A stretch of DNA of 64,000 nucleotides from an uncultured Clostridia bacterium (GCA_934754375.1 CAKVHT010000001.1:152532-216531), one strand, 5' to 3'; numbered from the stretch's first letter, positions 13,785-24,167 are shown. Notes: generated by a model from the sequence alone, not told the origin. Numbers and translations: made by a program.

Positions 13785-15797
13785 CTAGAACAAATCATCG
13801 TCATCATCTTCATCGTTTTGTTTAGCAAGTGTGCTGTTGCGTTGTTTAATATCGTAATAAACAGCGTCTTCATCAAACATACGTTTTTCTTGATATTGAC
13901 CATAAACACGTGTTGTGTTGTAGATTTTTGATTTGAAGTATGGTGTGATAACTGTTTTTAAGCAAGCGTTTGGTTCAAATGTTTTGATAACAATTTGCCC
14001 TTTATCCCTAAATGACATAAGTTCTTCAGGGTATGCAATAGGAATTGATTTTACAACATTGCTTGTTGAAGTGCTTTCTTTTCCGTCTGGGCCCTTTGAT
14101 TTGTTTTCATTTGTTTCAACAATTGTCTTTTTGCCCAAAAGTTCACTGAATTCTTTGTTTGTAGTGGTGTCTTCTGATGCAATGTAAATTTGTATAGGGC
14201 AGTTGTCTTTGATGATTTTGCCTTCGTCTTGACCATAAACTTGGTATAGTTGGCTATAAGACTGAACGCAAAGTTCAAAGAATATACCACGGCTACGGCC
14301 AACTGTCATGATTGAGCCGAATTCTGGGAATTTTGGCATATTACCAAATTCATCAAGCATGAAGTAAACATGACGTTTAAGTTCGCCACCTATTTGTTGC
14401 GCTTTATCAACCAATTTTTTGTAAAGTTGTGTTACAAACAATATTGCAAGAGGGTAACGAGTGCGCACTTCATCAGGAATAATAAGGAAGATTGCTGTAG
14501 GCTTTTCGTCCATATTCACAAAATCAATTTCGCTGTGACAGGTTAAGAAACTGATACCTGTATCGCTGAACAATGCTGTTTTGCTTGACACAAAGCCCAT
14601 GTAGTTTTTTGTTGTGCTTTCTGCGTTGTTAAGTGCTGTTGAAGCCAAATCGTGAACTTTGCTGAATTTGCTTCTATAATCGAACAAATATTTTTTAAGT
14701 GTTGCATAAGTGTCACGTCCGCTATCTGTCATGTTACAAATCTTGTAAACATTATAGAGGTTGTATTTTTCACGAGTCATGCCCAATTCAGGCACACGGC
14801 TATCTTCAAGCATAGCAAGCATAACAGCATGGATTAATCTTTGTGCAGTTCTTTCCCATGATGGGTCTTTTGTGCTTTCAATTGGTGCAAGTGTTGTGCA
14901 TATATCATTTAAAGCAGTGTATGTTTTGTCTTGAAGTTCACGGCTTGTTACACGCATATCATTTTCAAGTTTGTCTTTATCAGCATAAGCAAAGTTGTTA
15001 AATTCAAACCATGTTGTTTGAGTGAAATCAAAAGGACGTTGAATGATCAAATTGTATTGTTTAGGATTATCTCCCGGTGGGTGAACTTTAACCTCTTTTT
15101 CCAGATGATAACTCCTTTGATACATATCATAAGGGTAAGATAATGGGTTCCATTGTACACTTGAGAATGGGTCACGCAAATTTACAACTTTAACATCATA
15201 ACCCTCTTCCAAAAACTTGTTGCAACATTTGTCATACAATTCGCCTTTGGGGTCGGTTATAACAAAAGAAGGTTTTGAGGCGGTCATACTCATTAATTGT
15301 AAACTTGGCACAACAAATCTTGATGTTTTACCAGAAGAAGTTGTACCTACAACCAAAGTGTGAATAGGATTAACAAAGTTGATGTCCATTTTGTTATGAT
15401 TTTCTTCTGCACGTATCAAAATGCCATCTTTTTTACAACTTTGGATTGAACTTAATGTATTATAATTGAAGCCAGCAATCTTTTTTAAGTCTTCGTCAGT
15501 TAAAAAGTCACGGTTAAAGAACTGAGTTGTGTCTCTGCCTTTTGTGTCCTTAACTTTGTCTTCGGCCTTATCACTGCTTTTGCTTTTTGTTTTTCCATCA
15601 AGGATACGCATAAGGTCAATGACAAGCACACTACCGCAAACCAACAAAACGATTACAATTGGTGTGGTTGTGCCCATGTAACGAATGTTGAATCCAAATG
15701 AACCATCTTTCAAATATGTTACAAGGATAATGCTTCCAACAAATGCTAAAGCAAAAACAATAAGATATTTTAAAATAACCTTTAAAACTTTTTTCAT
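13785..15797 (-). CDS. Type IV coupling protein, VirD4/TraG family
   Basis: Two N-terminal TMs. Walker A is VVGTTSSGKTSRF, followed by FVITDPKGELY. Walker B is VYFMLDEFGNMP. The tail is acidic (DEDDDDDLF). SD aaggaa precedes the ATG at 15797, so the track start at 15824 is less likely. Confidence 0.85.
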   Translation of the reverse strand: MKKVLKVILKYLIVFALAFVGSIILVTYLKDGSFGFNIRYMGTTTPIVIVLLVCGSVLVIDLMRILDGKTKSKSSDKAEDKVKDTKGRDTTQFFNRDFLTDEDLKKIAGFNYNTLSSIQSCKKDGILIRAEENHNKMDINFVNPIHTLVVGTTSSGKTSRFVVPSLQLMSMTASKPSFVITDPKGELYDKCCNKFLEEGYDVKVVNLRDPFSSVQWNPLSYPYDMYQRSYHLEKEVKVHPPGDNPKQYNLIIQRPFDFTQTTWFEFNNFAYADKDKLENDMRVTSRELQDKTYTALNDICTTLAPIESTKDPSWERTAQRLIHAVMLAMLEDSRVPELGMTREKYNLYNVYKICNMTDSGRDTYATLKKYLFDYRSKFSKVHDLASTALNNAESTTKNYMGFVSSKTALFSDTGISFLTCHSEIDFVNMDEKPTAIFLIIPDEVRTRYPLAILFVTQLYKKLVDKAQQIGGELKRHVYFMLDEFGNMPKFPEFGSIMTVGRSRGIFFELCVQSYSQLYQVYGQDEGKIIKDNCPIQIYIASEDTTTNKEFSELLGKKTIVETNENKSKGPDGKESTSTSNVVKSIPIAYPEELMSFRDKGQIVIKTFEPNACLKTVITPYFKSKIYNTTRVYGQYQEKRMFDEDAVYYDIKQRNSTLAKQNDEDDDDDLF

Positions 15798-16271
15798 AAT
15801 GTTCCTTTTTGTAATATAAATCATTTTAAATGAAGCTCAAATATTTGTCAACCAAAATGCTATTAGTTATACTTTGACAAACAGCAAGTAAAAAGAATAA
15901 ATTAAAATTTAAATTAATGATAATTATATTTAATATCAATTAAAAAACCTTAAAAACTCAATAATGAATAAACAAAAGATTTTTACACAAAATATTTTTG
16001 CTAAATAGGATAAATAGCCACAAAAATTCAACAAAAAACGGTTGCAAACATTGTAATAACTGATTTTTGTGAATATTTAACAGCAAAAATAAGAAACTAA
16101 ATTAAAAATTATCAAAAAAATATTTTTAAAATAAAAAAACAAATTATATAGGATTGTAAAAAATTTTAAAAAAAATGTAAAATTTAGTTGATTTTAATTT
16201 TTGATATTGTTAATATTGTCATATATTACAGCACAGGTTAAGCATTCTTGTGTGGTTTAAGGGGGAAAATT

Positions 16272-16562
16272 ATGAATATGTTTTTGGAAGCAGTGCCACA
16301 ATGGATCAACACTTTAACAAATGCAATGACAAACGTTATTAACCCAGTTTTGATTGTTGTTGCAACTGCTGGTATCATCTATGCAATTTGGGTTGGTATC
16401 AAGTTTGTTAGAGCAGAAGATAAATCTGCACGTGACGAAGCAAAAGCAAAACTCATTTCAGTTATCGTTGGTATCGTTGTAACTGGTTTGTTGATTGCCT
16501 TATTCTATTGGTTGGCTTATGCAATCAAAGAAGGAATCATTTCATTTGATACTTGGTACTAA
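16272..16562 (+). CDS. Small two-TM T4SS membrane subunit, VirB2/TrbC-like (or Maff2/TcpD-like)
   Basis: SD aaggggga precedes ATG 16272. This is a 96-aa hairpin protein: TM1 (PVLIVVATAGIIYAIWVGIKFV), a charged loop (RAEDKSARDEAKAK), then TM2. It lies in a T4SS neighbourhood. Confidence 0.45.
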   Translation: MNMFLEAVPQWINTLTNAMTNVINPVLIVVATAGIIYAIWVGIKFVRAEDKSARDEAKAKLISVIVGIVVTGLLIALFYWLAYAIKEGIISFDTWY

Positions 16563-24116: not shown

Positions 24117-24137
24117 GAGCAACAACTATTTCTAATA

Positions 24138-24167
24138 TAAAAAAGCACCTTTAATGGTGCTTTTTTT
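24138..24167. terminator. Bidirectional terminator between virB4-like and spoVT
   Basis: agcacc-6 nt-ggtgct stem between A6 and T7. Confidence 0.7.

Follow-up and report, generated by a model that had tools for sequence, protein, structure and literature searches.

A minimal type IV secretion locus without a linked relaxase, fixed in the chromosome of Candidatus Onthoplasma and its relatives and probably serving a contact-dependent role

The analysis of a 64,000-nucleotide stretch of DNA from an uncultured Clostridia bacterium (GCA_934754375.1; the whole stretch is referred to as the window) identified six genes of a type IV secretion system (T4SS), which probably form an exapted, vertically inherited and minimal monoderm apparatus that belongs to the stable chromosome of Candidatus Onthoplasma and relatives (UBA1242), is not mobile and would act in a contact-dependent role. 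The six open reading frames (ORFs; 13785-24116) are all uninterrupted and encode the coupling ATPase VirD4, a hairpin protein, a lipoprotein, a bitopic protein, a VirB6-like protein and the ATPase VirB4; the last five are read from the plus strand and run divergently from the VirD4 gene on the minus strand. An original prediction made from the window had described such an intact set with both signature ATPases, and the assignments of VirB4 and VirD4 hold in profile tests with Pfam, NCBIfam and PDB. It had offered two explanations, a domesticated T4SS or a recently decayed integrative and conjugative element (ICE). Domestication is upheld by synteny, co-divergence and constraint, whereas recent decay of an ICE became untenable. 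Gene identities, homology to known systems, fixed chromosomal position, co-divergence with the neighbouring genes, purifying selection and the lack of DNA-processing genes nearby are established for this locus.

This reading is carried mainly by the comparison with relatives. In a scan with one genome per species, in which the search patterns reach only relatives of the query, 62 loci were found to encode VirB4; all genomes are metagenome-assembled genomes (MAGs), and flanks were examined over ~10 kb. The identity of VirB4 to the protein of the window is 62-99% in 61 loci and 44% in one, and most of the loci bear the label Candidatus Onthoplasma or uncultured Clostridia, with animal and human guts as sources. 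According to tblastn and gene calls, the order VirD4 (minus strand), hairpin protein, a protein of ~500 amino acids (aa), one of ~750 aa, VirB4 and spoVT-dus-spoVB is conserved, and cobW and a U32 peptidase gene are often situated upstream. The pairwise distances of VirB4 follow those of SpoVT (r = 0.94, 44 taxa; none of 999 Mantel permutations reached that value), Dus (r = 0.93) and SpoVB (r = 0.95), and the distances of VirD4 follow those of VirB4 to the same extent (r = 0.94). Among VirB4 and its three downstream neighbours, VirB4 is the slowest-evolving protein, with a mean distance of 0.24-0.26 compared to 0.29-0.54 for SpoVT, Dus and SpoVB.

The genes have also been kept functional in appearance. 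All complete orthologues, i.e. those lying fully inside a contig, are intact (34 of VirD4, 52 of the VirB6-like protein, 57 of VirB4 and 39 of the 495-aa bitopic family), the lone exception being a VirB4 frameshift in an outgroup locus. The motif GKSG[SG]GKS is retained in 58/58 VirB4 orthologues and [ILV]AVDEAH in 57 of them, while the Walker motifs of VirD4 are kept in all 34 Onthoplasma-type orthologues. Relative to the closest relative (dS ~0.2), the ratio of nonsynonymous to synonymous substitution rates (dN/dS) amounts to 0.031 for VirD4, 0.019 for VirB4, 0.089 for the 495-aa protein, 0.088 for the VirB6-like protein and 0.028 for spoVT. The ratios range from 0.03 to 0.07 for VirD4, from 0.02 to 0.05 for VirB4 and overall from 0.02 to 0.09 for the four large genes, which is the same range as for spoVT; they were taken only from close relatives, distant pairs being saturated (dS >1) in a way that inflates omega for fast-evolving proteins. 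The earlier view that the long uninterrupted frames reflect ongoing selection agrees with dN/dS far below 1 and intact orthologues, and the relatives do not show pseudogenised copies with neutral dN/dS. The outgroup mentioned above is Christensenella sp. UBA6345 (L059, 10001-12710; the 44% locus), in which a frameshift near 12325-12330 divides VirB4. Over the last 127 residues of this VirB4 the identity to the window is 72%, versus 44% elsewhere, and no long ORF is found in the 1.6 kb that separate the hairpin gene from the VirB6-like gene. This VirB4 could be a chimeric assembly or a case of real decay; due to the oddly high C-terminal identity, which makes a chimera possible, it was not used as evidence of decay.

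The searches for mobility genes covered the window on both sides of the cluster, i.e. 13.8 kb upstream of it and 40 kb downstream, where ORFs of at least 90 aa outside the T4SS genes were scanned with Pfam. No relaxase or Rep_trans protein was matched by Pfam or NCBIfam among the long ORFs of the window, and the Pfam scan of these ORFs gave neither a tyrosine, serine or DDE recombinase or transposase nor a hydrolase of the VirB1/CHAP/NlpC type, in agreement with the absences already listed in the original prediction. A gene for an M23 peptidase is found at 281-874, 13 kb off and outside the conserved locus. In the other species examined, no relaxase or recombinase occurs within ~10 kb of the locus, and no oriT-like repeat and no ssb or partition genes lie near it in any genome examined; thus, the adjacent relaxase or integrase that relatives might have revealed was found neither in the window nor within ~10 kb of the relatives' loci. 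A flanking att or inverted repeat is lacking in the window as well, where no repeat pair brackets the cluster, and the GC content of the cluster is like that of its surroundings. Hence, the locus does not display the marks of an ICE, namely a linked relaxase, an integrase or terminal repeats, a patchy distribution or a phylogeny incongruent with that of the host, and it shares with the exapted T4SS of the Patescibacteria its chromosomal, lineage-wide and vertically inherited state without a relaxase nearby.

The coordinates of the features are compiled in Table 1. VirD4 is recognised by Pfam (T4SS-DNA_transf 5e-45, TraG-D_C 1e-31, TrwB_AAD_bind 1e-24), by the NCBIfam model conju_CD1115 (286.8 bits, cutoff 250) and by PDB profiles of Cag5 (5e-10) and TrwB (2e-5). 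It has two N-terminal transmembrane (TM) segments, the Walker A motif GTTSSGKT and the Walker B motif FMLDEF, and its C-terminus consists of poly-Asp followed by Leu-Phe (13785-13830). VirB4 carries the motifs GKSGSGKS and VDEAH, so that all four motifs named beforehand are present. As anticipated, VirB4 is fused to two N-terminal TM segments, and it matches NF045975 VirB4_plasma, the Mbov_0397 family, with E 1e-172 and 576.1 bits, under the equivalog cutoff of 590. The alignment runs from end to end (protein 11-908 versus 10-893 of 894 model positions), and the next-best NCBIfam family, clostridial CD1110, reaches 127 bits (cutoff 325). Further matches of VirB4 were obtained with Pfam P-loop_TraG (5e-17) and with the VirB4 structure 4AG5 in PDB (2e-38).

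Table 1. Positions, strands and basis of assignment of the T4SS features in the window
Feature	Position	Strand	Basis
VirD4/type IV coupling protein (T4CP), coupling ATPase, 679 aa	13785..15824	-	Pfam, NCBIfam, PDB profile matches
Divergent intergenic region, AT-rich, between the VirD4 and hairpin-protein genes	15825..16271		Sequence read
VirB2/TrbC-like two-TM hairpin protein, 96 aa	16272..16562	+	Pfam T4SS_pilin
Small lipoprotein, 122 aa	16634..17002	+	Lipobox LVAGC
Bitopic protein, 495 aa, lineage-restricted family	17244..18731	+	GTG start and ribosome-binding site
VirB6-like polytopic protein, 756 aa	19061..21331	+	NCBIfam MMCAP2_0566_fam, ICE_Mbov_0396_TM
VirB4 ATPase, 913 aa, fused at its N-terminus to two TM segments	21375..24116	+	NCBIfam VirB4_plasma
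Hairpin with A-run and T-run flanks	24140..24168		Sequence read directly: AAAAAGCACC-TTTAAT-GGTGCTTTTTTT

The smaller components were characterised in the same way. The intergenic region between the two divergent units shows several promoter-like hexamer pairs on both strands, which are consensus matches only, and probably holds the putative promoters of both units. The start of the hairpin protein was set to the ATG that follows the ribosome-binding site AGGGGG, the mechanical ORF beginning at TTG 16248. As had been proposed for a VirB2-like hairpin, the protein has two hydrophobic segments and exceeds the cutoff of Pfam T4SS_pilin (29.2, cutoff 26.6); the TrbC/VirB2 match is weak (0.002), and the NCBIfam model for the pilin-like Mbov_0395 gives 30.6 bits, below its cutoff of 40. 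It is situated upstream of the TM protein, as Mbov_0395 is, and a profile built from the orthologues detects it in 47/62 loci. The resemblance to mycoplasma ICEs that the original prediction had drawn from the gene order reflects real homology (NCBIfam), but its mapping onto the ICE genes was offset, since the counterpart of CDS15/Mbov_0395 would be the hairpin protein instead of the 495-aa orphan. The 122-aa protein has a lipobox and no family match in Pfam or NCBIfam, and a strong terminator hairpin follows its gene at 17012-17032. It is detectable in only 5/62 loci and absent from the gene calls of the other relatives inspected; hence, it is confined to the closest relatives of the window. 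The proposal that it is the counterpart of CDS14 had to be given up, because it has no detectable similarity to CDS14 and this narrow distribution.

The bitopic protein, previously given as 496 aa, is indeed bitopic and without known family, but its best start is GTG 17244 after AAAGGAGGTG, which yields 495 aa, the length also called in relatives. An acidic N-terminus, one TM region and a Gly-rich linker precede an ectodomain of ~320 aa, and AlphaFold2 modelled residues 190-505 with a predicted local distance difference test score (pLDDT) of 80-97. The comparison of predicted structures by Foldseek, which had been suggested as a check, gave no PDB match better than E 0.1 for this protein; there was no PDB profile match, no Pfam T4SS domain and no NCBIfam match either. 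Its sole Pfam match, Pox_ser-thr_kin, is weak (7.7e-05, 22.3 bits), implausible and was regarded as spurious. The family comprises 191 cluster representatives and is present in 41/62 loci; none of ten representatives scanned against Pfam had a curated domain, and all six that were looked up are unnamed or designated hypothetical protein. The VirB6-like protein, as claimed for a polytopic protein of this kind, passes the cutoffs of MMCAP2_0566_fam (126.8, cutoff 90) and ICE_Mbov_0396_TM (73.7, cutoff 70). Six hydrophobic segments lie within residues 1-380 of a membrane domain that covers approximately residues 1-400, followed by a variable, coiled-coil-like C-terminal tail of ~330 aa. Chains of R388 TrwI/VirB6 recur among the top Foldseek matches of its model without being significant (E 2-4, TM-scores 0.25-0.34), and the search against PDB profiles yielded nothing beyond coiled-coil noise caused by the tail. 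The gene is located directly upstream of VirB4 in all loci that extend far enough (54/62). Downstream of VirB4, the hairpin between the convergent VirB4 and spoVT genes looks like a putative bidirectional terminator, as had been noticed; it was missing from the output of the automatic terminator scan.

Three kinds of relative emerged from a metagenome scan that started from a VirD4 alignment. First, divergent lineages (VirB4 46-49%, VirD4 38-42% identity) keep the same divergent architecture; in one of them the locus is found on an 899-kb contig beside rho and a 2,488-aa protein (L077), and another keeps U32 beside VirD4. Second, a co-oriented version (VirB4 36-37%) on human-gut-type metagenome contigs is accompanied by DUF3846 and a 1,268-aa polyvalent protein with ArdC-N, zincin, MuF-C, MutS_I and NrS-1 polymerase domains. 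An ArdC-type polyvalent protein together with DUF3846 is typical cargo of conjugative elements, and this version probably shows what a mobile ancestor or cousin looks like. One of its contigs (L094; 1060-4866, 10094-14992) has a 1,632-aa ORF without Pfam match between VirD4 and the hairpin gene. The third kind consists of ordinary elements of the CD1110/CD1115 type. Lone VirD4 homologues (36-39% identity) with tails ending NDVFDW or DLFEW were also recorded on contigs of up to 360 kb (L078-L083), where a distance of 10 kb around them held no further T4SS gene.

In this regard the tail of VirD4 deserves attention. All 34 Onthoplasma-type orthologues end with poly-Asp and Leu-Phe (or Asp-Phe, Ile-Phe, Phe-Phe), and many metagenomic relatives have acidic, aromatic-ended tails such as DDFFDDFFDE, FDDFDF and NDVFDW, which the mobile group associated with ArdC lacks. 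The interpretation of the tail as a derived trait of a domesticated system was rejected, because similar tails exist in conjugative relatives. The tail of F TraD binds TraM, and SSB has an acidic tip; presumably, the VirD4 tail is comparable to both. As a sequence feature it argues for a conserved docking partner, and it does not tell DNA from protein substrates.

Two MAGs among the VirB4 loci, KY236-132 (L019) and KA0021_177 (L045), belong to the genus Onthoplasma in the family UBA1242 (PMC12306168). The genomes of this family measure 0.67-1.6 Mb and are devoid of pathways for making amino acids, nucleotides and lipids, of ATP synthase, of a complete glycolysis and of standard transporters, while sporulation genes are kept, and the authors proposed that these bacteria live as obligate symbionts or parasites (PMC12306168). 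A 2026 chicken-gut study reported that UBA1242 is negatively associated with chicken growth. A secretion system is mentioned neither in that study, which highlighted the family, nor in PMC12306168, and a literature search that combined Christensenellales or RF39 with type IV secretion gave no relevant paper.

Because the hosts are small-genomed and devoid of most biosynthesis and of standard transporters, support of a partner-dependent lifestyle is the most likely function of the locus; its substrate, transport direction and partner organism, and hence this function as a whole, are inferred. By analogy with the Patescibacteria, the likeliest role would be contact-dependent translocation in the service of an epibiotic or parasitic way of life. 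The core of the machine consists of the VirB2/VirB3-like hairpin protein, the VirB6-like channel protein and the TM-anchored VirB4, to which the clostridial-type VirD4 and the bitopic ectodomain protein are added. VirB4 may energise the assembly of a membrane channel from the VirB6-like and hairpin proteins, and the 495-aa protein might form the wall-spanning or surface-exposed part in place of VirB8 and VirB1. VirD4 could recruit cytoplasmic substrates by way of a partner that docks on its acidic, Phe-terminated tail. During contact with another cell, such a machine would then move macromolecules across the envelope.

Several points weigh against an exapted, contact-dependent T4SS. The composition of the machine is not uniform, since a deeper Onthoplasma clade (VirB4 62-65%) has only the hairpin, VirB6-like and VirB4 genes, and neither VirD4 nor the 495-aa gene was found there by tblastn and profiles within up to 10 kb of the locus, which adjoins RmuC, VanW and a BspA-like protein. 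Because this clade keeps only those three genes, the triad represents the invariant core. The docking tail of VirD4 is common to bona fide conjugative relatives and equally fits the docking of a relaxosome. A relaxase, an unrecognised nickase or an oriT may lie beyond the 64-kb window or the ~10-kb flanks, in which case DNA transfer would come into play. No peptidoglycan hydrolase or VirB8-like protein was recognised at the locus, although the host makes peptidoglycan. Finally, the window was assigned to UBA1242 (Christensenellales) from the names of the closest loci and one paper, i.e. this assignment rests on labels.

Close to the cluster, a tRNA-Met gene (12635-12711) has its last 34 nucleotides exactly repeated 104 bp downstream (12782-12815), ~1 kb from VirD4. 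A terminator-like hairpin follows each copy, chance would be expected to produce no such match, and the duplication is present in L003, whereas L001, the closest relative, does not have it. It resembles an att-type scar left by an integrative element. As att site of the T4SS the repeat pair was rejected, because it occurs on one side only without enclosing the cluster and is missing in L001. Next to it, a 216-aa ORF (13035-13685, plus strand) without family match occurs in only 3/62 species loci; its DHIIPxS motif presumably points to an HNH nuclease. The islet of ~1 kb formed by this ORF and the tRNA-Met repeat is 93-99% identical to L003 at the nucleotide level, compared to 82-91% for VirD4 and ~75% for U32. 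This suggests that the 216-aa ORF is a recently exchanged selfish or mobile gene by the tRNA scar.

Among the alternatives, the locus might be a chromosomally fixed conjugation apparatus by which Onthoplasma cells exchange DNA in the manner of the chromosomal transfer of mycoplasmas, with a relaxase or nickase that acts in trans or escaped recognition, and with recombination in small, bottlenecked genomes as benefit. We regard this as unlikely, despite some arguments in its favour. The T4SS of mollicute ICEs, to which the core is homologous, mediates ICE as well as chromosomal transfer (PMC6030558; PMC12857230), and no canonical relaxase has been identified in these ICEs either (PMC6030558). 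Against it, relaxase, oriT-like repeat and ssb or partition genes are missing near the locus in the genomes examined. VirD4 has been kept under strong constraint with a tail common to conjugative relatives; however, the deeper clade has no adjacent VirD4. The islet shared with L003, at 93-99% identity between flanking genes of 75-90%, points to recent lateral exchange within the lineage by an unknown route, but this sole mosaic block carries the att-like scar at a tRNA gene, which suggests site-specific integration and not conjugative recombination.

A DNA-uptake machine like Helicobacter ComB or archaeal Ced, providing nucleotides and material for recombination, appears improbable. ComB-type uptake systems need no coupling protein. 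The deeper-clade locus without VirD4 would be in line with such a system, but in most species VirD4 is adjacent, constrained and co-evolving with VirB4 (r = 0.94). The lack of nucleotide biosynthesis and standard transporters in UBA1242 (PMC12306168) and the precedents of T4SS-based import by ComB and Ced (PMC12857230) speak for the idea, yet the Ced proteins gave no more than weak P-loop matches (E 0.005 and 8.5e-5) that stay well under the cutoffs, and in Ca. Southlakia DNA uptake via ComEC is not the reason why the T4SS is essential (PMC12857230). The decaying remnant of a recent ICE, or an active ICE at the spoVT region with further modules outside the window, is highly improbable: the gene set does derive from conjugative elements, a mobile relative exists and the tRNA-Met gene with its duplicated 3' end is located 1 kb from VirD4, but 61 other species-level genomes, and also lineages whose VirB4 is as little as 46% identical, have the same locus in an equal context, it diverges together with its neighbours, no pseudogenes occur among the Onthoplasma-type orthologues, dN/dS is 0.02-0.09, the GC content is inconspicuous, no recombinase was detected in the window, and the tRNA repeats, 104 bp apart, neither bracket the cluster nor occur in L001. 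Because of the synteny, the co-divergence, the intact genes, the low dN/dS and the lack of bracketing repeats, we exclude a recently decayed ICE as well as an ICE that repeatedly targeted this site.

The remainder of the 64 kb is occupied by housekeeping genes, i.e. mfd, pth, cobW, the U32 peptidase gene, tRNA-Met, spoVT, dus, a spoVB/murJ-like gene and the HU gene as well as a tadA-like deaminase gene, rlmH, yabP, yabQ, queH, alr and truA, and by several very large surface proteins. Beside spoVT, a 204-aa three-TM protein (24753-25367, minus strand) resembles KwaA of the anti-phage system Kiwa (69 bits, cutoff 100) and matches PHROG 7312; no KwaB-like partner was seen, and it is conserved only in the closest relatives. 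Between spoVT and dus, the segment 25742-31137 encodes a DUF5722 protein of 1,250 aa, which has a signal or TM segment, and then a 547-aa metallophosphoesterase; this insertion is missing in most relatives, where spoVT directly adjoins dus. A 3,635-aa predicted lipoprotein (41666-52573, plus strand; lipobox FFSSC), rich in Asn, Ser and Thr and with a borderline GLUG motif as its only match, is likely a giant surface protein or adhesin, and giant proteins flank the T4SS also in a distant relative, as the 2,488-aa protein of L077. A 900-aa ORF with GTG start (55396-58098, plus strand) has three hydrophobic segments near its N-terminus and ~8 AT-hook-like repeats (KRKAGRPRK) at its C-terminus, the surrounding AT skew being strong (0.335); its product would be anchored in the membrane and probably bind DNA. 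Insertions were also observed within or beside the T4SS cluster of relatives. In L030 (2207-6808), a 1,533-aa M60-like peptidase of the enhancin or mucinase type with F5/8-type-C and DUF285 domains is encoded upstream of the VirB6-like gene, and in L025 (2006-4750) the gene of a membrane protein of the YfhO family separates the hairpin gene from that of the 495-aa family.

The locus is as conserved as the adjoining housekeeping genes and suggests a second, independent case of T4SS exaptation beside the Patescibacteria, now in the Bacillota. If this holds true, T4SS exaptation would recur with genome reduction, and the locus would be a molecular candidate for the way in which these abundant, uncultured bacteria of the gut acquire the compounds that they are unable to produce. 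It would furthermore provide a walled-cell outgroup for how the conjugation and chromosomal-transfer machine of mycoplasmas works without VirB1 or VirB8. With the 495-aa ectodomain protein, a new family of T4SS accessory proteins has been identified, which may take the place of VirB8 and VirB1. As a more tentative extension, Onthoplasma/UBA1242 might be spore-forming, walled Clostridia that converged on the lifestyle of the Patescibacteria, growing on other cells of the gut or at their expense, and domesticated a minimal mollicute-type T4SS with a VirB2-like protein as an indispensable organelle for contact and acquisition. In that case, bacteria with reduced genomes and a dependence on partners would repeatedly be marked by an exapted monoderm T4SS that lacks a relaxase, and this trait would not be the peculiarity of one phylum. 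Exapted T4SS in genome-reduced lineages were known before; new are the phylum-level setting, the different T4SS subfamily and the lack of a recognisable hydrolase or VirB8 despite a peptidoglycan wall.

Among the known systems, the apparatus of mollicute ICEs and Spiroplasma plasmids is related to this locus through its core, for which the profile matches indicate homology beyond a similar gene order. The reference set comprised CDS5, CDS15, CDS16 and CDS17 of the M. agalactiae ICEA and the NCBIfam models Mbov_0395, Mbov_0396, Mbov_0397, MMCAP2_0565 and MMCAP2_0566. In mycoplasma ICEs, the apparatus is formed by CDS5 (VirD4), CDS17 (VirB4), CDS16 (likely VirB6-like) and CDS13/15 (VirB3-like) and has neither VirB1 nor VirB8 (PMC12857230). 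Both systems share the TM-fused VirB4, a VirB6-like protein above both cutoffs and a similar hairpin protein, the order hairpin protein, TM protein and VirB4, the lack of a VirB1- or VirB8-like component and genome-reduced hosts. Spiroplasma plasmids have Mbov_0395, Mbov_0396 and Mbov_0397 in this order too, in one plasmid as adhesin, Mbov_0395, Mbov_0396, small ORF, Mbov_0397 and T4CP, and Spiroplasma and Mycoplasma proteins (Mbov_0397) were the best full-length relatives of VirB4 among 72,556 plasmids, with 23-28% identity. The similarity has its limits, as VirB4 is only ~26% identical and both VirB4 (576/590) and the hairpin protein (30.6/40) stay under the equivalog cutoffs. Judged by this near-miss at 590 bits, VirB4 belongs to a sister group of the mollicute ICE family rather than to the family itself. 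Moreover, VirD4 is a clostridial protein of the CD1115 family that shows no similarity to the T4CP of Spiroplasma, the 495-aa ectodomain family is additional, and the host produces peptidoglycan and has retained sporulation genes. In contrast to the mollicute elements, the locus has no CDS22-type DDE recombinase or inverted repeats and is a single-copy, vertically inherited unit at a fixed site. The CDS22 DDE recombinase and the surface lipoprotein CDS14 are both required for ICEA transfer, and the window has neither a DDE enzyme nor, in its 122-aa lipoprotein, detectable similarity to CDS14.

With the T4SS of the C. difficile CD1110/CD1115 transposons, the locus has in common a VirD4 above the CD1115 cutoff and the acidic, aromatic-ended tail of this group, whereas VirB4 (127/325 bits) differs, relaxase, hydrolase and recombinase are missing, and the locus is not mobile. 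The rvh system of Rickettsiales is of the diderm MPF-T type; it includes VirB7-B11 components, its genes are scattered over several islands, and the VirB6 genes are duplicated. It is likewise a core, vertically inherited T4SS in reduced genomes of host-dependent bacteria that does not serve self-transfer, but there is no close sequence relationship to the locus described here. Finally, the Patescibacteria possess a chromosomal, mostly relaxase-less T4SS derived from MPF-FATA, which is essential for the epibiotic growth of Ca. Southlakia (PMC12102498; PMC12857230), and a 2025 review considered it unique among monoderm systems and described VirB2-like pilins (PMC12857230). The hosts of the present locus are, in contrast, spore-forming Bacillota (Clostridia), the VirB1-, VirB8- and TrsD-like components known from Patescibacteria are lacking, and VirD4 is adjacent and constrained, while in Patescibacteria it is usually distant and non-essential (PMC12102498). 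The sequence affinity is to the mollicute family, which is the nearest curated family among the NCBIfam models. In common with the systems of the Patescibacteria or candidate phyla radiation (CPR) described by Quinonero-Coronel et al. (2025) and by Wang et al. (2023; cited therein), the locus is a monoderm, chromosomal, MPF-FATA-derived and lineage-inherited T4SS with a VirB2-like protein and without a relaxase nearby, and in both cases the hosts have genomes of ~1 Mb, miss biosynthetic pathways and presumably depend on other cells.

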